A stretch of DNA of 64,000 nt from the NCBI GenBank assembly GCA_050951805.1, contig JBMNJT010000008.1:448001-512000 (forward strand), given 5' to 3'. This DNA is from Bacillota bacterium. GTDB taxonomy: Bacteria; Bacillota; DTU025. The notes below the pieces were generated by a model, which worked only from the letters and a program-made list of their open reading frames with translations, did no database searches and was not told the origin of the DNA. Positions 5,641 through 19,659 of the stretch are shown here, in pieces. The translations under genes were made by a program, and so were the position numbers. Each line of letters starts with the position of its first letter. Position 1 is the first letter of the stretch.

Positions 5641-6351
5641 ATGCCAAAGAGAGGCAAGAAGTATCAGGATTCCGTTAAAGTCATCGATAGGATGACTCTG
5701 TATGGACCGGCCGAAGGCGTGAAACTCGTTCGCGAGGCGGCCAAGGCCAATTTCGATGAGACTATCGAAGCCCACATCAGATTGGGTGTGGATCCCCGTC
5801 GTTCGGATCAGCAAGTTCGTGGGGCGGTCGTGCTTCCGTACGGAACTGGCAAGACCAAGACTGTGCTGGTTTTCGCAATGGGCGAAAAGGCGCGCGAGGC
5901 AGAAGAGGCTGGCGCCGATTATGTTGGCGGGGAAGATCTGGCTCAGAAAATACAGGGTGGATGGCTCGATTTCGATGCTGCCGTAGCTACTCCAGACATG
6001 ATGAGTGTCGTGGGAAGGCTAGGTAAGATCCTTGGCCCAAGGGGCTTGATGCCGAACCCGAAAACAGGAACGGTCACGTTCGAAGTGGCCAAGGCGATCA
6101 ACGAGATCAAAGCGGGTAAGGTTGAATACAGGGTCGACAAGAGTGGCATTATCCACGTTGTCATCGGCAAGGCCTCATTTGAAGAGGGGATGCTGATCGC
6201 GAACCTCAGGGTGTTGTCGGACGCCATAGTGAAAGCTCGTCCGGCAGCCGCCAAGGGGACCTACATCAAAAGCGTCGCGCTGGCGCCGACGATGGGTCCG
6301 TCGGTTCGTCTCAATCCCCAGCTGTTTGCGCAGATGGTGGCCGAAAAGTAG
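5641..6351 (+). CDS. rplA: 50S ribosomal protein L1
   Basis: [23 protein letters not shown]. Confidence 0.97.
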
Positions 6352-6380
6352 AGTTGTCTGCTTTGACAATAGAGAGATGT

Positions 6381-6552
6381 GCCTGGCCCAAGACAGCAGG
6401 CGTCGCGTAGTGTGGCAACGCTGCACGAAACGCGGCCTAAGTGACGAAATGTCAGCCCGCCGAGGCTGGAGGGAAGCTTGGCTTCCGAACGCAAATATAT
6501 GTCTGTGATTTGCGGGACCTCCGGCCATACCTGAGCCGAGGTCCCTTTCTAT
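6381..6552 (+). ncRNA. L10 leader
   Basis: CCAAGACAGCAGG...CCCGCCGAGG core and 3' attenuator-like hairpin GGGACCTCCGGC/GCCGAGGTCCC-TTTCT upstream of rplJ. Confidence 0.8.
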
Positions 6553-6597
6553 TGCCGGTACTAAGCGAATCGTACGCGTGCGAACGGAGGTGTGAAA

Positions 6598-7149
6598 GTG
6601 CCTACACCGAAAAAGATCCAGACTGTTGAAGAAATCCAATCAAAACTGAACGAAGCGAGCTGCGTTGTGCTGACTGACTTCCGTGGTCTCAATGTGGCGC
6701 AGGCGACTGCGCTCAGACGAAGGCTTACGGAGGCAGGCGTGGAGTACAAGGTCTACAAGAATACGCTCATCAAGATTGCAGCGGATAACGTTGGCATCGA
6801 AGGGCTAGATTCATATCTTCAGGGCCCGACTGCGCTTGCCTTTTCCACTGAGGATCCGATCGCTCCGGCCAAGATCCTTGCCGATTTTGCCCGTGAGACG
6901 AAGATCCTCAAGGTCAAGGCGGGTGTTTTGGACGGACAGATCATTGACAAGGATCGGGTCGCGGAGCTTGCAGCCTTGCCTCCCAAGGAAGTCATCCTTG
7001 GCAAGGTGGTCGGGGCAATGCAGGGACCGATTTTTGGCCTGGTCAATGTGCTTGCTGGTCCCACGCGCAAACTAGTATGGGCGTTGGATGCCATAAGGCA
7101 ACAAAAGGAAGAAGCCGGCGGAGATCCTCAGACCGTTCAGGCTCAATAA
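6598..7149 (+). CDS. rplJ: 50S ribosomal protein L10
   Basis: DFRGLNV, YKVYKNTL, LAALPPKE; GTG start after GGAGGTG. Confidence 0.96.
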   Translation: MPTPKKIQTVEEIQSKLNEASCVVLTDFRGLNVAQATALRRRLTEAGVEYKVYKNTLIKIAADNVGIEGLDSYLQGPTALAFSTEDPIAPAKILADFARETKILKVKAGVLDGQIIDKDRVAELAALPPKEVILGKVVGAMQGPIFGLVNVLAGPTRKLVWALDAIRQQKEEAGGDPQTVQAQ

Positions 7150-7167
7150 GAGGGAGGAAAATGTGCT

Positions 7168-7548
7168 ATGACTAAGGAAGAAATCCTTTCAGCTATTAAA
7201 AACATGACAGTTCTCGAGCTGTCCGAATTGGTCAAGGACCTCGAGGAAGAGTTTGGTGTAAGCGCAGCAATGCCGGTGGCCGCTATGGCGTCGGCAGGAG
7301 CGGCAGGCGCCGCTGCTGCTCCGGAAGAGGAAGAGAAGACAGACTTCGATGTAATTCTGGTTTCTCCGGGAGAGCAGAAGATTCCTGTGCTCAAGGTAGT
7401 CAGGGAGATCACTGGGCTCGGCCTTAAAGAGGCCAAGGAGCTCGTTGACAATGCGCCTAAGCCCATCAAAGAAGGCGTAAAGAAGGAAGAAGCGGAAGAG
7501 ATCAAAGCCAAGATTGCCGATGTCGGAGGTCAGGTCGAGATCAAGTAG
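7168..7548 (+). CDS. rplL: 50S ribosomal protein L7/L12
   Basis: [28 protein letters not shown]. Confidence 0.97.
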
Positions 7549-7944
7549 TCTGCTGAGCCTTGAAGTCACTGAAAAAGTCGAATCTATGCCGGGGGAAGGC
7601 AATGCGGACATCGCACACGCCGACTCCCGGCGATTCTATCTGTGCCAGTTTCAGGCTGTGGATATTGAGCAGGCTCGTGTTTCGCCAAAGCTTCCTCCCA
7701 ACCGGTCCTAGCGCAGCCTTGCGTGTCTCTTTTCCCCGCAATAATCACTAATTCCCTTCTCAGGTTCGCATCGGGTATCCTCGGAGAGTTGTAAGAGAAA
7801 CTCAACTTCACAGTAAACATATTATGCTCTCTGGAGCAATGACGTTATGCCAAAAGCTACAGGCGGGAAGAAAGGGAGTGCGTTGTATTCCAAATGTGGG
7901 TTTTGTGATCCAAGAATGGCTGTAAGGGCTCTAGCTGGCATGAT

Positions 7945-7973
7945 TTGACGCGATTCGGGCTATATGTTAACAT
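7945..7973 (+). promoter_or_regulatory. sigmaA-type promoter of rpoB copy 1
   Basis: TTGACG-17 bp-TAACAT with extended -10 TG; homologous to the copy 2 promoter. Confidence 0.7.
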
Positions 7974-7989
7974 AAAGGATGATGCCGAA

Positions 7990-8190
7990 GGACGGGCAGA
8001 TCGAGTGCGCTGTGATTTGCGGGCACCCAGCCCTTGCGGAGCCGAGCTTTGGCTTCGCGCAAGTGTCCAGTGAATAGGTTATGAGAGGGCGGCAAAACGC
8101 TGATGTTTTGCACGTGAGATCTGCCAGTCTCAGTGCGGCTCTGGCTTATGGGCGTTTGGTCCATGTCATGATGGTCTGCACTGTTTCTTG
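7990..8190 (+). promoter_or_regulatory. Structured 5' leader of rpoB copy 1
   Basis: Alignable to the copy 2 leader; stem AGTGCGG/CTGCACT versus AGCGCGG/CCGCGCT. Confidence 0.5.
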
Positions 8191-8216
8191 TATCTGAAAA
8201 GCCGTTAGAAAGTAGG

Positions 8217-11200
8217 GTGGGGTCTATTGAGATTGCGACTAAGCAGATGAAACGCGAGAGAATCCTGTTTTCCAAGGTCCCCAGTGTCCTCGATCTCCCC
8301 AACCTCATCGAGGTCCAGCACAAATCATATCAATGGTTTCTCGGAGAGGGCCTGCGCGAAGTGTTCCGAGATATCTCGCCAGTCCAGGATTTTACCGGCA
8401 ACCTTGTCCTCGAGTTTACCGGATACGCCTTAGGCGATCCGAAATATACGGTGGAGGAATGCAAAAGACGGGACGTTACTTATTCTGCTCCACTCAATGC
8501 AAAGGTCAGGTTGATCAGTAAGGCAACTGGAGAGGTCAAAGAACAGGAGGTTTTCATGGGAGACTTTCCGCTCATGACCGAGGCTGGCACATTTGTTATC
8601 AACGGGGCGGAACGCGTAGTCGTCAGCCAGCTGGTGAGATCCCCAGGCGCCTATTTTGACATTGACAGGGATTCATCCGGAAGGGAGATCTACACGGCAT
8701 CCATAAGGCCTAACCGAGGCGCTTGGCTTGAGTTTGAGACGGATGCCTCGAATATGGTCTGGGTGCGCGTTGACCGGACGAGAAAGCTTCCTGCCACGGT
8801 CATGTTGAGGGCGATGGGGCTTAGCTCAGATGAGGAGATCATCGAGGTTTTCGGAGACAACGAGTACATCCGCAATACGTTGGAACGGGACAACACGAGT
8901 AACGAGGAAGAGGCCCTGATAGAGATCTACAAACGCCTTAGGCCAGGCGAGCCGCCTTCTATTGATAGTGCGAGGTCTTTGTTTGAGTTTCTTTTCTTCG
9001 ATCCCAGGAGATATGACTTGGCGAAGGTGGGCCGCTACAAACTCAACAAGAAGCTGGAACTTGCCGACAGGCTGATCGGTCAAAGGCTGGCCGAGCCCAT
9101 ACATTATCCGGTTACAAATGGCACAGATCCGGCAAGGGCCGTAGTGGATTCGGAGACGGGAGAGATCACCTGGCTTGATGACGCGGGCGAGGAGGTAGAT
9201 CTAGGGACCAAGCTGGCGTTGGAAGCAGGAAAGAAGGTTACTGCCAGACGAGCCGAACTCGTTCGGGAGCTGGAACAGCAAGGACATATAGGAGAAGCGA
9301 TTCTTGTTGCTCCGGATGACGCGCCGCAAGATTCTATAAAGGTTATCGGCAATCGATATCCCCCTGCCAACCTTGTTGTAATTACGCCCGCGGACGTTGT
9401 GGCTACTGTGAATTATCTCGTCAATCTTCCATATGGCATTGGCACGATTGATGATATCGACCACCTTGGTAATCGAAGGCTCAAGACCGTTGGCGAACTG
9501 CTGCAGAATCAGTTCAGGATTGGATTATCCCGCATGGAACGGGTGATACGCGAGCGCATGACTATTCAGGATGTTGAAGCTGTGACGCCTAAGGGCTTGA
9601 TGAATGTCAGGCCAGTGGTGGCCGCGGTAAGGGAGTTCTTTGGATCGAGCCAGCTGTCGCAATTCATGGACCAGACAAATCCGCTGGCCGAACTGACTCA
9701 TAAGCGCCGATTGTCAGCGCTTGGCCCCGGGGGGCTGTCGTGGAGGAGAGCCGGGTTCGAAGTGCGCGACATCCATCATTCTCATTATGGCAGGATATGT
9801 CCGATCGAGACGCCTGAAGGGCCTAACATCGGGTTGATAGGGTCTTTGTGTACGTATGCCCGTGTCAATGAATACGGTTTCATTGAGACGCCCTATAGGC
9901 GGGTTGAGGACGGAAAGGTGACGGAGGAGATCAGATATCTCACTGCCGATATGGAAGACAGATACGTCATCGCTCAGGCAAATGAGCCCATGAATGAGGA
10001 TGGTTCTTTTGCTAGTCAGCGAGTAGCATGTCGCTTGAAGGATGAGATCGTAATAGTCCCGGTCGATCAGGTAGATTACATGGATGTCTCGCCCAAACAG
10101 TTGGTTTCAATTGGTACTGCCCTTATCCCGTTCTTGGGGAATGATGATGCTGGTCGGGCTCTGATGGGCTCGAACATGCAGAGACAGGCGGTTCCGCTTT
10201 TGAGTCCGGAAGCCCCGCTGGTGGGAACAGGCATGGAATACAAATCGGCTCTCGATTCTGGGGCGGTGATCGTGGCCAAGCATGGCGGATTCGTTAGAAG
10301 TGCGTGTGCTGATCGAATCGTGGTTGAGCGGGATGATGGCAGATTGGATACATACAATGTGACCAAATTTGCCAGATCAAACCAGGGTACATGCATTAAC
10401 CAGAAACCTTTGGTCAGAGTTGGTCATAGAGTCGAGCCAGGCGACGTGATTGCCGATGGACCATCCACTGATATGGGCGAGATGGCGCTGGGACGAAACA
10501 TTTTAGTCGCGTTCATGCCGTGGGAGGGCTACAATTATGAGGACGCCATCCTCATATCTGAGCAACTCGTGATCGACGATGTCTTTACATCCATACACAT
10601 CGAGGAGTACGAATGTGATGCTCGAGATACTAAGCTTGGACCTGAGGAGATAACGAGGGATATCCCGAATATCGGCGAGGACGCCCTGAAGGACTTGGAT
10701 GAGGATGGTATAATCAGGATCGGCGCAGAGGTGCAGCCCGGCGACATCCTTGTAGGAAGGGTTACGCCGAAGGGCGAGACTGAGCTCACGCCTGAGGAGC
10801 GCTTGCTCCGGGCAATATTCGGCGAGAAGGCGCGTGAAGTGCGCGATACCTCGCTCAGGGTGCCCCACGGCGAGTCAGGGAAGGTAGTAGAGGTCCATGC
10901 GTTTTCCCGTGAGAACGGAGACGAGCTTGCTCCGGGTGTAGGTAAGCTTGTCAGAGTTTATGTGGCGCAGAAGCGGAAGATCTCCGAGGGCGATAAAATG
11001 GCGGGCCGCCACGGAAACAAGGGCGTGATTGCCAAGATATTGCCGGTCGAAGACATGCCGTTTTTGCCGGACGGGCGTCCGGTGGAGATAGTCCTCAATC
11101 CGTTGGGAGTGCCTTCGCGGATGAATATCGGTCAGGTGCTGGAGACTCACCTTGGCTGGGCCGCAGCCGCTCTCGGCGTTCACGTGGCAACGCCTGTGTT

Positions 11201-11678
11201 CGACGGTGCTGATGAGGACGACGTTTTTGGGTATCTGGAGAAAGCAGGTCTGCCCGCAAATGGCAAGACTATTCTGTATGACGGGAGAACCGGTGAACCA
11301 TTCGACCGAGAGGTGACTGTGGGCTACGCCTACTTGATGAAACTACTACACCTTGTCGACGACAAGATCCATGCGCGTTCCACAGGACCATACTCCCTAG
11401 TGACCCAGCAGCCACTGGGCGGCAAAGCTCAGTTCGGAGGGCAGAGATTCGGCGAGATGGAGGTTTGGGCATTGGAGGCCTATGGGGCCGCCCACACGCT
11501 TCAAGAGATGCTCACCGTAAAGTCAGACGATGTTTTGGGCAGAGTCAAAACATATGAGGCGATTGTAAAAGGGGACATGATTCCTGAACCTGGCGTTCCT
11601 GAGTCCTTCAAAGTGATGATCAGAGAGATGCAGGGCCTATGCCTTGATATACAGGTCTTGCCTGCGGACGAGGAATGA
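8217..11678 (+). CDS. rpoB: DNA-directed RNA polymerase beta subunit, divergent upstream paralog (start GTG 8217, ATT 8226 or ATG 8247)
   Basis: 1153-aa intact ORF with [37 protein letters not shown] and QRFGEME motifs. Confidence 0.95.
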
Positions 11679-11726
11679 GCAATTACGTGCATGTGGCGGG
11701 TTTTGGAATCTTTACATTCATGGGTC

Positions 11727-11747
11727 CGCCTTGGAGGTAGGCGTTTT
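11727..11747 (+). terminator. Possible intrinsic terminator after rpoB copy 1
   Basis: CGCCT-TGGAGGT-AGGCG-TTTT. Confidence 0.45.
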
Positions 11748-11808
11748 ACAGCAGAGGCGGTGTTATCAACAAGACCTGATCAGCGCTTAAAAAACAGATA
11801 AATTGGTC

Positions 11809-11837
11809 TTGACGGGGCGTCACTCTTGTGGTAGCAT
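11809..11837 (+). promoter_or_regulatory. sigmaA-type promoter of rpoB copy 2-rpoC
   Basis: TTGACG-17 bp-TAGCAT with extended -10 TG and A-rich upstream region. Confidence 0.75.
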
Positions 11838-11854
11838 AATAAAATGTCACAAGG

Positions 11855-12060
11855 GCATGAGCAGAGTTGATGCGCCGTGATCTGCTGGGGCATAACCCTT
11901 CATGAGATGGAGCGGCGCGGGCACGCCCTGAGTGACGGAGGACTGAGGTATAAGGGGACAAATGAACACACATGCTATTTGCAGGTATGATCTATTAGTC
12001 TCAGCGCGGCTTTGACTGGAGGATATGCGCCAAAGGTCATTAATGTCCGCGCTATTCGTT
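11855..12060 (+). promoter_or_regulatory. Structured 5' leader of rpoB copy 2
   Basis: AGCGCGGCTTTGAC...GTCATTAATGTCCGCGCT stem-loop; homologous to the copy 1 leader. Confidence 0.5.
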
Positions 12061-12103
12061 ATGCCCGGAAATCTACAATCTACAAGGAAGTAGGGTGGGT
12101 TGT

Positions 12104-15778
<3,675 letters not shown>

Positions 15779-15834: not shown

Positions 15835-18800
15835 ATGCTGGACGTCAATGATTTTGATCGAATTAGAATAGGAATGGCATCGCCAGAGCAAATCCGGGCC
15901 TGGTCGAGTGGTGAGGTTAAGAAACCTGAGACGATTAACTATCGTACTCTGAAGCCTGAACGCGAGGGACTTTTCTGTGAGAAGATCTTTGGCCCGACGC
16001 GTGACTGGGAATGCCATTGCGGCAAATACAAGCGCATAAGATACAAAGGCGTCGTATGTGACAAGTGCGGCGTGGAGGTTACCCGGGCAAAGGTTCGTCG
16101 CGAGAGGCTGGGCCATATTGAATTGGCTGCCCCGGTCTCGCATATTTGGTATTTCAAAGGAATTCCGAGCCGAATGGGCCTCTTGCTGGATATGTCTCCT
16201 AGGTCATTGGAGAAAGTGCTTTACTTTGCATCCTACATCGTGACTGATCCGGGAGATACGCCGCTTTCGAAGAAACAGCTATTAACTGAAAGCGAATACC
16301 GTGAATACAGAGAGAAATACGGACAGCTCTTCAAGGCGGGAATGGGAGCCGAGGCGATACAGGAGCTTCTCCGCGACATCGATTTGGATGAGCTTGTCCA
16401 AGAGCTTCGCGACGATATTGAAAACAGTTCTGGCCAGAAACGTGTGCGTGCCATACGCAGGTTGGAGGTTGCTGAGGCTTTTCGAAAATCCGGAAACCGG
16501 CCTGAATGGATGATACTCGATGTCATTCCTGTGATACCTCCGGATCTGCGCCCAATGGTGCAGTTGGACGGTGGCAGGTTCGCCACCAGTGACTTGAATG
16601 ATCTGTATCGTCGGGTCATAAACAGGAACAACAGGCTGAAGAAGCTTCTGGACTTGGAGGCGCCCGACATTATCGTTCGCAACGAAAAAAGGATGCTGCA
16701 AGAGGCGGTGGACGCTCTTATCGACAATGGTCGCAGGGGAAGGCCGGTTACAGGACCTGGCAACAGGCCCTTGAAGTCGATGTCAGACTTGCTCAAGGGC
16801 AAGCAGGGAAGGTTCAGGCAGAACCTCCTCGGAAAGCGTGTCGACTACTCGGGCAGATCCGTTATTGTCGTCGGACCGACTCTCAAGATGCATCAGTGCG
16901 GATTGCCCAAGGAGATGGCTCTTGAGTTGTTCAAGCCTTTTGTTATGAAGAGGCTTGTCGACAAGGGCTATGCTCATAACATAAAGAGTGCCAAGCGGAT
17001 GGTGGAGCGCGTAAGGCCCGAGGTGTGGGACATTCTCGAGGAGATCATTGCTGAGCATCCGGTGCTTCTAAACCGTGCTCCTACCCTTCATAGGCTCGGC
17101 ATTCAGGCGTTTGAGCCCGTCTTGGTGGAGGGCAGGGCCATACAGATTCATCCGCTTGTCTGCACCGCCTACAATGCAGACTTCGACGGTGACCAGATGG
17201 CGGTCCACGTGCCGTTGTCCGCTGAGGCGCAGGCCGAATCGAGGTTGCTCATGCTGTCGGTGAACAACATTCTTTCACCGGCTCACGGCGGCCCGCTGGC
17301 TACGCCCACGCAGGACATGGTTTTGGGCTGCTACTACCTGACATTCGAGCGGATAGGCGCCAAGGGCGAGGGGAAGCTGTTTGAGAATCCGGAAGCGGCT
17401 CGAGCGGCTTATGATGCTGGCGCAATCGCATTGCATTCCATGATTGTAGTGCGAATTCCAGAGTCCAAGCTTCTGTTGGGAGCGGAGGAGGCTGGCACTC
17501 GCAGGATAGTGACTACCGTTGGCAAGCTTATATTCAATGAGATATTCCCGGATGACTTCCCCTATATAAACTCCGCGGAGTCATCATTTGATTCAGCGCT
17601 CACTGAGGGCGACTTCTTGCCGAGGGGTGTCTCTTTTTGGGAGTACGAGGAGTCAGGCGGCAATCGCATGCGCAAACCGGCTACCAAGGGTTTCTTGAGC
17701 AAACTCGTGGGTGTGATCAGGAGAAAGTACGGGAACGCGAGGACCGCTGATGTATTGGATGCCCTGAAGAACCTCGGATTTCATTACGCCACTGTGTCAG
17801 GGACTACGGTAGGCATAGTCGACATTGCTGTGCCCGACAAGAAACAGGCCATCATAAAGGATGCCGACGCCAGGGTCGAGGAGATCGAGGGTCAGTACAG
17901 AAGAGGCTTGCTTCTGGAGGACGAAAAGTACAGCCTGATAATAGATGTTTGGACTGAGGCGCGCGAGAACGTTCAGGAAGCCATGATGCGGGAGATTCGG
18001 CCGGATATTCTGATGGCCCGCAAACTCGAGGAGGCCAAGCTGACTGGGGAGAGAGAGCGTGTGGAGTTCAAGATCGACGAGCTCAATCCCGTATACATGA
18101 TGGCCACATCGGGCGCTCGTGGTAATGTGCAGCAGCTCAACCAGCTTGCAGGGATGAGAGGCCTCGTCGCCGACCCGTCAGGACGGACTATCGACGTCCC
18201 CATCAAGGCCAACTTCAGGGAAGGCCTGAATGTGTTGGAGTACTTCATTTCCACCCACGGGACTCGTAAGGGGCTGGCCGACACTGCTCTTAGAACAGCT
18301 GACTCAGGCTACCTCACCAGGCGGCTTGTGGATGTGGCTCAGGACGTAATCGTCAGGGAGGATGATTGCGGCACTACCGAGGGAATCGATGTGTCCGCGA
18401 TTGTTGAAGGCGATACGGTGATCGAGAGCCTGTCGGAGAGGATCACTGGGCGCGTGAGCCTGCAGGAGCTGGTGAACGAAGAGACCGGCGAGGTGATCGT
18501 CGCCAAGAACCAGATGATCGATGAGGACCAGGCCAAGATGATCGAGGATTTGGGATACGAGTCTTGGGCTGTGCGGTCGGTTTTGAAATGTAGGACGCGC
18601 CATGGTGTGTGTGTCATGTGCTACGGGCGCAATCTTGCAACAGGCAACTTGGTTGAAGTAGGCGAAGCGGTCGGAACCATTGCTGCGCAATCCATTGGCG
18701 AGCCCGGCACGCAGCTGACTATGAGGACATTCCACACGGGCGGCGTTGCAGGGGACGACATCACCCGCGGCCTGCCCAGGGTTGAGGAACTGTTCGAGGC

Positions 18801-19659
18801 GAGAAAGCCCAAGGGCCTTGCCATCATTACTGAGTATGCTGGCGAAGTAAGCATGGTTGAGGCCAAGGGGTCTCGCAAGATAGTCATAACTCAACCTTCA
18901 GGCGAATCCCATGAGTACTCCGTGCCATATGGTGCACGGCTGGAGGTTAAGGAAGGCCAGAAGGTCGAGCCGGGCCAGAAGCTTACTGAAGGGTCGCTCA
19001 ATCCCCACGATATATTGCGAATTCGCGGGTCAGTAGCTGTGCAGCAGTATATAGTCAGAGAAGTGCAGGACGTCTACCGTTCCCAGGGTGTCGAGATCAA
19101 TGACAAGCATATCGAGGTAGTAGTCAGACAGATGATGCGCAAGGTGAAAGTAGAGAATCCGGGAGACACGGATCTGCTCCCCGGCGAGCTGGTAGACATC
19201 TTCAGGTTTGAGGACACTAATGCTGAAGCCAAGGCGAATGGGCTCAGGCCAGCTACGTGCAAGCCGGCGCTTCTCGGGATCACCAAGGCGTCACTGCAGA
19301 CAGACAGCTTCCTGTCGGCGGCTTCGTTCCAGGAGACTACCAGAGTCCTTACGGAAGCTGCTATGAAGGGCAAGAGTGATGAGCTCATTGGTCTGAAGGA
19401 GAATGTCATCATAGGCAAGCTTGTTCCGGCAGGCACCGGGATGCCGAGATACCGCAATGTGAGGGTCCTTGCGTCTCCGGAAGCCAGTAGGGAAATCGAA
19501 CGCGATATTGAGAAGGCCGAAAGAGGTCGACGAGATGTAAGAGAAGCTGCATCTCCTGGGGCCGCGAGGGCAGATTCTCTTGGAGCGCCCTTGGCGGAGC
19601 ATCTGGGGAAGGAAATAACAGAGGCCCTGAGCGAGGGGGCGTCGCAGGCCCAGTCCTAG
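15835..19659 (+). CDS. rpoC: DNA-directed RNA polymerase beta' subunit
   Basis: NADFDGD catalytic motif, zinc ribbon, [11 protein letters not shown] trigger loop. Confidence 0.98.

Follow-up and report, generated by a model that had tools for sequence, protein, structure and literature searches.

Bacteria are held in textbooks to have one RNA polymerase core. In a 64,000-nucleotide (nt) stretch of a Bacillota genome (GenBank assembly GCA_050951805.1, contig JBMNJT010000008.1, positions 448,001 to 512,000; here called the window), the gene for the β subunit of this enzyme, rpoB, is present twice. Two full-length copies lie in tandem inside the rplJL–rpoBC cluster, on the + strand like every feature described below: copy 1 (8217–11678) encodes a 1153-amino-acid (aa) β-subunit paralogue without an acidic tail, copy 2 (12095–15778) encodes a canonical β subunit of 1227 aa, and rpoC (15835–19659) follows. 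The ATG at 8247 may be the true start of copy 1. The pair sits on a single contig of a 2.75-Mb genome that is 97% complete in 8 contigs, and searches of this genome found no rpoB besides the tandem pair and one copy of rpoC, its only one. The two β proteins are identical at 972 of 1148 aligned residues (85%) with 0 gaps. Copy 1 has six RpoB Pfam families on record (PF04563, PF04561, PF04565, PF10385, PF00562 and PF04560) and its residues 12 to 1152 align to RpoB chains of solved structure; the nearest database proteins carry names of Bacillota, class Limnochordia. Here we present evidence that copy 1 is, with high probability, a functional alternative β subunit under selection, and consider what it may do differently.

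Aligned to RpoB of Escherichia coli K-12 MG1655, whose numbering we use throughout, copy 1 carries I177R, Q490K, I493M, K503R, R540W, E541R, V550I and E672G. An earlier note on this DNA, drawn up from its letters alone, had listed motif and codon differences between the copies and numbered them as I177R, Q490K, R540W, E541R and E672G; each difference is present and the numbering is confirmed by the alignment. Codon 177 (8706–8708) reads AGG (R) in copy 1 and ATA (I) in copy 2, codon 490 (9591–9593) AAG (K) and CAA (Q), codon 540 (9741–9743) TGG (W) and AGG (R), codon 541 (9744–9746) AGG (R) and GAA (E), and codon 672 (10137–10139) GGG (G) and GAG (E), so that the motif PFLENDD of copy 2 stands as PFLGNDD in copy 1. 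The changes thus fall near the W183 loop (I177R), in the fork-domain helix (9591–9632; Q490K, with I493M at 9600–9602 and K503R at 9630–9632), in fork loop 2 (9741–9746; R540W and E541R), at V550I (9771–9773), at E672G and in a C-terminal clamp block (11616–11636; L1326M, K1328R, L1330M and S1332G). Residues 507–533, rifampicin cluster I, are identical in both copies, Q513, D516, H526 and S531 included, as the earlier note had read them.

The second large difference lies at the C terminus. Copy 2 ends in an acidic tail of 79 aa with a net charge of −28 (15539–15775) that copy 1 lacks. A strongly acidic C-terminal tail is a feature of all 25 canonical RpoB rows scored in this part of Bacillota, extending 63–152 aa beyond the last conserved helix with a net charge of −21 to −68. 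In the clade formed by copy 1 and its orthologues (clade A), 5 residues follow that helix, and copy 1 of all three species in which we found it ends at the same place (...DEE). To our knowledge, the acidic RpoB tail has no assigned function.

The two other species show that most of this signature is shared. In a sister species (G001), one contig carries a 1149-residue open frame and, after it, the beginning of a second copy, the remainder of which lies on another contig; in a third, less complete genome (G002), rplL is followed by the first half of copy 1. Five more short proteins of the copy-1 kind (P0005–P0009), all in the two sister species, came out of a search of 5.8 billion proteins. Where the site is covered, copy-1 orthologues of the three species have in common I177R (R in 3/3 orthologues, I in 27/28 other sequences), Q490K, I493M and K503R (K, M and R in 3/3), E541R, V550I (I in every orthologue covering the site, V in 31/31 others) and the L1326M/K1328R/L1330M/S1332G block. 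Private to the window species are R540W, E672G, A491G, I495V, A664G, K886R and several others; copy 1 of the sister species reads GGLSRRRAG and PFLENDD, and a metagenome locus (L165) also reads WRR in fork loop 2. The conservation among orthologues that the earlier note had set as a test of its reading therefore holds for I177R, Q490K (together with I493M) and E541R, and fails for R540W, E672G, A491G and I495V, which are absent from the two sister species.

The altered residues are otherwise strongly conserved. Canonical relatives (25–31 rows) have I177 in 27/28, Q490 in 29/29, K503 in 29/29, R540 in 31/31, E541 in 30/31 and E672 in 31/31, so that the rarity of R177 and G672 is one measured among relatives rather than bacteria-wide. 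Across a 35-row alignment, 22 columns with at least 90% conservation in all other rows have a different residue in copy 1 of the window. Where conservation outside the genus reaches 95% or more, this copy differs at 17/574 columns (15–17/574 across orthologues) and copy 2 at 2/577 (1–2/577 over the copy-2 sequences); because of this asymmetry, copy 1 is, on alignment evidence, the derived copy of the pair.

Several lines of evidence establish that the derived copy is alive. Its frame is open over 1153 aa with no relaxed constraint, so a test for a pseudogene was negative. By the Nei–Gojobori method, the nonsynonymous (dN) and synonymous (dS) divergences between copy 1 of the window genome (G000) and of G001 are 0.082 and 1.89, a ratio of 0.043; dN/dS is 0.043–0.061 between copy-1 orthologues and 0.059 between the two copies within G000, all with dS saturated at about 1.5–1.9. 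We checked 33 catalytic, nucleotide-binding, CRE-contact (core recognition element) and drug-resistance positions, and all equal E. coli except 540 and 541. Copy 1 is identical to E. coli at K1065, K1073, H1237, R678, R1106, E813, D814 and N684, residues of the active centre or in contact with nucleotide or nucleic acid. Sampled words of the copy 1 sequence are matched at 0.99 in 14 DNA runs; counting runs with only part of the stretch as well, there are 20, drawn from 12 studies of landfill, sludge, digester and bioreactor samples. Both copies are covered in pieces by contigs from RNA libraries of 4 runs in 3 studies, most of them 99% or more identical, with no listed difference in codons 540/541. 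Contig depth in run X15 is 5–17 over copy 1 bins and 26–75 over copy 2 bins, depths that cannot rank genes, and contig ends near 7991–8005 and 11899 are no proof of transcript starts. Copy 1 is thus a real, conserved gene under purifying selection, with its catalytic sites intact and covered by RNA-library contigs.

The earlier note had proposed selection for a changed enzyme and rested this partly on multi-base codon changes. That part does not stand, because the copies have diverged by about 1.5 synonymous substitutions per site, and multi-base changes at that distance are no evidence of selection. The proposal itself is supported by the conservation among orthologues, by the dN/dS of 0.04 and by the recurrence of change at 490, 503 and 541 described below.

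Phylogenetic trees place the origin of copy 1 close to home. Three copy-1 sequences form a clade (support 100/100) that nests within the RpoB clade of their own genus (100/100), so that copy 1 is, on the phylogenetic evidence, a local duplication with no common descent with the rpoB paralogues of actinomycetes. Throughout the gene, the two copies in the window genome agree at third positions with a frequency of about 0.5 and share no identical tract, so there has been no recent gene conversion there. In G001 (L004, L033), about 130 codons (approximately 700–830) are 100% nucleotide-identical between the copies, a sign of gene conversion or of a collapse in assembly. The copies of the third species have 0 differences over residues 850–1105, a 256-residue stretch, and then, at 1101–1150, 9 differences that include the M/R/M/G block at the C terminus. 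If these identical tracts are real rather than collapsed, the signature survives homogenization, as selection for difference predicts. The other 9 scored genomes of the family carry a canonical tailed RpoB, although one (G009; contigs C254 and C255, loci L010 and L034) shows two canonical pieces, of which one is a complete canonical rpoB on a short contig and the other, on a different contig, is again a canonical C-terminal part, here joined to rpoC; these could reflect a further duplication or a strain mixture, and the bin has about 5% contamination.

The conserved changes map to elements that hold the transcription bubble. According to portions of PMC4499132, the CRE pocket for the +2 non-template base comprises β residues 168–176, 443–451 and 533–546, and W183 stacks on +1; W183A and deletion of 533–546 shorten the life of the open complex, and the deletion cripples elongation. 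I177R abuts the segment 168–176 and residues 540/541 lie inside 533–546, which bears out the earlier note's mapping of these sites to the downstream edge of the bubble. The same note had called R540 a rifampicin contact, and in the available part of PMC13404664 its side chain is indeed among the residues that bond rifamycin B; the face of fork loop 2 there looks toward the acidic σ finger. Mycobacterium tuberculosis Q409, which equals E. coli Q490 by an offset of 81, is altered in a Q409R substitution at the σ-interaction surface (PMC8057087, in part).

The classical resistance sites checked, by comparison, are untouched in copy 1. Taken from rifampicin clusters N, I, II and III and from the fidaxomicin, myxopyronin and salinamide sites, they show no resistance substitution at V146, Q513, D516, H526, R529, S531, P564, I572, R687, D675, N684, Q1256, S1322 or V1325 (569 and 677 were not compared). 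Changed instead are neighbours of such sites, at 540, 672 and 1326. E672G lies three residues before D675 of the link region, one of the salinamide (Sal)-resistance sites 569, 675 and 677 given in an excerpt of PMC4029172. The C-terminal block starts one residue after, and directly adjoins, the equivalent of Clostridioides difficile V1143 (assuming a 28-residue tag in chain 7L7B_C), a fidaxomicin-resistance site in the β clamp within 5 Å of the drug, as far as the text of 10.1101/2022.01.17.476619 that was available describes it. In the resistance literature consulted, we found no record of 490, 503 or 541 as resistance sites.

A second, separate duplication came to light in a scan for ALGPGGL[S/T]-x-[not E/D/G/A/V]-RAG in one genome per species (185,579 species, the window's own genome possibly outside the scan). 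Among the best 80 of 94 stretches, 69 held the peptide motif, and setting aside two chance matches in other frames left 67 RpoB, whose 540/541 states were RK (35), RT (11), RQ (7), RS (7), RR (3), RN (2), TQ (1) and RF (1). The earlier note had raised the rarity of W540, R541 and R177: W540 is absent among these 67 listed RpoB and R541 is found in 3, and R177 was compared among relatives only. The seven RQ cases come from Bacillota-titled genomes, and 4 of the five that we searched (G041–G044) hold two rpoB on different contigs, a short one (a 1155–1172-residue frame with RQR) and a long canonical one (1254–1294 residues, or 1008 where a contig end cuts it). The short paralogues (clade B; G041–G045, loci L143–L146) occur singly, with genes for transporters, a dehydrogenase, RecR/DnaX and the like as neighbours. 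Their tails are 36–40 residues long with a net charge of −7 to −12, so that both paralogue clades have shed the acidic tail of the canonical rows.

In trees, short and long copies group by lineage and not by type. A constraint joining both short clades, which were named after the first tree had been seen, cost 426 log-likelihood units (approximately unbiased test, p-AU 6e-73), and the clade-B duplication is thus, on tree evidence, independent of that which produced copy 1. Both short clades have nonetheless changed Q490 (to K in A and R in B), K503 (R and N) and E541 (R and Q), residues that are Q490 in 25/25, K503 in 25/25 and E541 in 25/26 of the canonical rows of the two-clade alignment; 490 and 503 are changed in 5/5 clade-B short paralogues. 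Among 651 conserved columns, 11 carry fixed changes in clade A and 17 in clade B, and 3 are changed in both against 0.29 expected (hypergeometric P 0.002, assuming equal mutability of sites); with strictly invariant columns only, 2 of 484 are changed in both (P 0.011). The loop before W183 is also altered in both, by I177R in clade A and by N to D two residues later in clade B. Both paralogue lineages come from sludge, digester or landfill samples. No third duplication was found among five genomes with other 541 variants (G046–G050), 4 of which have a single rpoB. The fifth (G047, a bin titled Lachnospiraceae) has a second rpoB fragment (L155, contig C143) that is 58% identical, Bacteroidota-like and K490/K541; being divergent and on a short contig of 4.7 kb, it was judged to be likely bin contamination and was rejected as a duplication.

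Residues 490, 503 and 541 change together well beyond the two paralogue clades. Pooling the genome scan with a metagenome scan (29 stretches), less 17 loci whose motif could not be read, yielded 92 RpoB fragments in which residue 541 is not acidic, not independent where they are kin; K503 is kept in 23 of them and Q490 in 6. Among the 60 with K or R at 541, R503 is found in 40, K503 in 5 and Q490 in 2. At least seven distinct 490/503/541 combinations recur, which suggests that the three residues work together and argues that 490 and 503 co-vary with 541. Individual metagenome loci show the triads S/R/(R or Q) (L164, L172, L176, L178, L182 and L188), (T or S)/R/K (L174 and L181) and A/S/K (L166, L168, L171, L173, L177 and L183), the last with a C terminus that is basic rather than acidic.

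Each copy has its own putative promoter. Promoter-like sites with an extended −10 lie about 270 nt upstream of both copies at homologous positions: TTGACG, 17 nt and TAACAT, with TG before the second hexamer, for copy 1 (7945–7973, a consensus match only), and TTGACG, 17 nt and TAGCAT, with TG, for copy 2 (11809–11837). The interval from the stop of copy 1 to the promoter-like site of copy 2 shows no terminator-like site. The same promoter-like motif precedes 5/5 aligned genus copies, relatives with a single rpoB have similar sites 5′ of it, and the leader of copy 1 (7974–8216) is homologous to that of copy 2; the duplication therefore seems to have carried promoter and leader along. The approximately 170 nt before rpoB (8047–8216 and 11925–12094 in the window) contain a hairpin, AGCGCGG ... 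CCGCGCU (about 8132–8138 paired with 8176–8182 in the copy 1 leader), whose 7-bp stem is kept in 11/11 leaders, the others being from the family and order (loci L004, L005, L006, L008, L009, L011, L012 and L035). In the window, the copy 1 hairpin shows a compensatory double change of C–G to U–A, and this leader is the most diverged. A GCCC box is predicted to pair with GGGUG at the start codon, and no Rfam family matched the leaders at E up to 0.1 over 6000–12400. The leader may be a cis-regulatory element, perhaps one for autoregulation of β.

On balance, we lean towards reading copy 1 as an alternative β subunit with a remodelled fork and CRE pocket and an altered handling of the open complex and the bubble. 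A core enzyme takes one β, and therefore two β subunits make two enzymes. Copy 1 would be a working, separately promoted β that assembles with the single β′, α and primary σ into a second form of RNA polymerase. This form would differ in a fork triad switched from Q490/K503/E541 to K/R/R, in an arginine beside the W183 loop (I177R) and in a changed C-terminal clamp segment without the acidic tail. These differences would sit at elements that hold both edges of the bubble and face the σ finger, and their combined effect would be to alter promoter opening, holding and leaving, and possibly pausing, with catalysis unchanged. We infer from sequence both the assembly of copy 1 into a core enzyme and the direction and kind of the biochemical effect, and the specific effect is the uncertain part of this reading. 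A second primary σ was considered as a partner of copy 1 and rejected: 15/15 genomes have one region-1.2 match each, and the σ finger is identical in sequence in the own genome and three relatives (4 compared).

Several points weigh against a remodelled enzyme. The base-contacting CRE residues R151, I445, D446, R451, L538, V547 and W183 are unchanged in copy 1, so that any effect would arise at the rim of the pocket. The shift towards positive charge described in the earlier note holds locally and not for the core as a whole, since over the aligned core the copies are only +2 apart in net charge, which rules out a global charge shift; the large difference is the lost acidic tail, which that note had not mentioned. 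Nor is a gain of positive charge the common denominator of the two clades, because clade B has Q, which is not basic, at 541. The altered triad is apparently the sole state in some lineages (H/R/K, seen in 30 fragments, is one example and H/Q/R, in 4, another) and is therefore compatible with ordinary housekeeping. Gene conversion that shortened the branches of the sister orthologues may explain part of the apparent speed-up of copy 1 in the window. The overlap statistic supposes sites of equal mutability, and the constraint used clades named with the first tree in view. The RNA-library contigs, finally, are consistent with transcription of copy 1 but do not prove it, as such libraries may contain DNA and give no expression levels.

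The main rival, which we regard as possible though a good deal less probable, holds that copy 1 is an inhibitor-insensitive spare β that keeps transcription going under a natural RNA polymerase inhibitor. Candidate agents would be small molecules that bind fork loop 2, the clamp hinge or the rim of the rifamycin pocket, or else proteins of phage or bacterial origin, or nucleic-acid mimics, that lodge in the main cleft. The only known bacterial rpoB paralogues, Nonomuraea rpoB(R) and Nocardia rpoB2, are of this kind and set the precedent (PMC5431353 and PMC8655204, each in part). R540 bonds rifamycin B, the C-terminal block begins one residue past the V1143 equivalent and E672G is three residues from D675, as the partial sources cited above place these sites; yet copy 1 is wild type at all the classical resistance positions checked, one species of the three has R540W and E672G, and 490, 503 and 541 have no resistance record in the literature consulted. 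The recurrence of change at the same sites resembles target-site resistance, and the shared provenance of both paralogue lineages in sludge, digester or landfill makes a shared agent conceivable. Self-protection of a producer is unlikely, however, because in the 97%-complete genome we found no condensation domain of a nonribosomal peptide synthetase (NRPS), and its only ketosynthase is of FabF size; the clade-B paralogues have ordinary transport and housekeeping genes as neighbours, and a spare β would leave the loss of the acidic tail unexplained.

It is improbable, in our view, that the copies are biochemically equivalent and kept for dosage or separate regulation, for instance by escape from autoregulation through a diverged leader, with the signature as tolerated drift at coupled sites. 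Each copy does have its own promoter-like site and leader, that of copy 1 in the window being the most diverged, the catalytic core is untouched, and an altered triad that serves whole lineages as their sole state can evidently do housekeeping work. Drift, however, does not predict change at the same three invariant sites and loss of the tail in two independent duplications, a strongly asymmetric departure from conserved columns, or a C-terminal block that persists beside a 256-residue stretch identical between copies. An artefact of assembly, or a pseudogene in decay, is hardly credible as an account of copy 1. The genomes are metagenome-assembled, mostly bins, the second copy in G001 is broken across contigs with about 130 codons identical between copies that could be repeat collapse, and R540W and E672G fall at very conserved residues. 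Against this, the copies in G000 lie on one long contig with no identical tract, the same sequence recurs in many independent runs and at locus L165, and an open frame, a dN/dS of 0.04 and a conserved stop position do not befit a pseudogene. Of the readings weighed, an alternative β with altered open-complex and bubble handling agrees best with the evidence.

The actinomycete paralogues (Nonomuraea rpoB(R) and Nocardia farcinica rpoB2) are like copy 1 in being a second rpoB beside the housekeeping one with substitutions concentrated in the fork domain. As described in part of PMC5431353, they are an expressed second rpoB that gives two RNA polymerase forms per cell, with a proposed 'stringent-like' global change in transcription; they carry H526N/S531Y and a six-residue lobe deletion and confer resistance to rifamycin or sorangicin. 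Copy 1, by contrast, is wild type at 526 and 531 and has 0 gaps relative to copy 2. The actinomycete genes are found in large secondary-metabolite producers, whereas the window comes from a 2.75-Mb anaerobe without NRPS or polyketide synthase, where the second gene is tandem in rplJL–rpoBC, tail-less and marked by signature sites 177, 490, 493, 503, 541, 550 and 1326–1332. Judged by sequence, copy 1 thus resembles that group as a second β and is not a member of it. Engineered E. coli mutants of the CRE and fork loop 2 (D446A, W183A and deletion of 533–546) affect the same structural elements, and in CRE-pocket mutants the half-life of the open complex, the rate of elongation, pausing and termination are changed (PMC4499132, in part), the kind of phenotype proposed here for copy 1. 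Those mutants, however, are laboratory losses of contacts in a single-copy gene; here the contacts are kept, rim residues are changed and the second gene is natural.

Nearer to copy 1 are the clade-B paralogues, with their independent duplication, short tail and changes at 490, 503, 541 and in the W183 loop. They differ in being a dispersed, stand-alone gene with Q541, extra E504Q and N568S changes, no M/R/M/G block and 36–40 tail residues kept, and we found no description of them in open-access papers and bioRxiv. Lineages whose sole RpoB is basic at 541 (fragments titled Omnitrophota, Planctomycetia, Latescibacterota and others) share the coupled 490/503/541 state, but there it is apparently the sole housekeeping state, with no canonical partner. 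The two α subunits of Francisella are likewise a duplicated core-subunit gene (PMC3294249, in part), of another subunit and with both α used in one enzyme. Reports of rpoB paralogues or duplication outside actinomycetes were not found in open-access papers and bioRxiv full text, and a genomic paper on Darwinibacteriales (PMC12663870), a Limnochordia order common in digesters, makes no mention of rpoB, RNA polymerase, duplication or paralogues.

For these lineages, the finding has a practical side: rpoB is a common single-copy marker, and paralogues that are 85% identical, whether tandem or dispersed, will inflate estimates of diversity and contamination. It also bears on the single-core rule, whose only documented β exceptions are the actinomycete paralogues tied to rifamycin resistance. 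A second β seems to have arisen twice in uncultured Bacillota without the hallmarks of resistance, both times with changes at the same three otherwise invariant residues and with loss of an acidic tail; the recurrence of conserved changes in a second lineage points, at the level of sequence, to a deliberately different version of the enzyme. More tentatively, and with doubt still outweighing confidence, two-enzyme transcription may have evolved at least twice outside actinomycetes, with a canonical β and a tail-less, switched-triad β sharing one β′ and one primary σ. The triad would then be a general covarying switch that tunes the enzyme's grip on the σ finger and the downstream fork, and hence which promoters stay open, for example under digester ionic or growth-arrest conditions. 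The two forms would be natural matched enzyme pairs for the roles of fork loop 2, the adjoining fork helix and the β C-terminal tail in promoter opening, escape and pausing.

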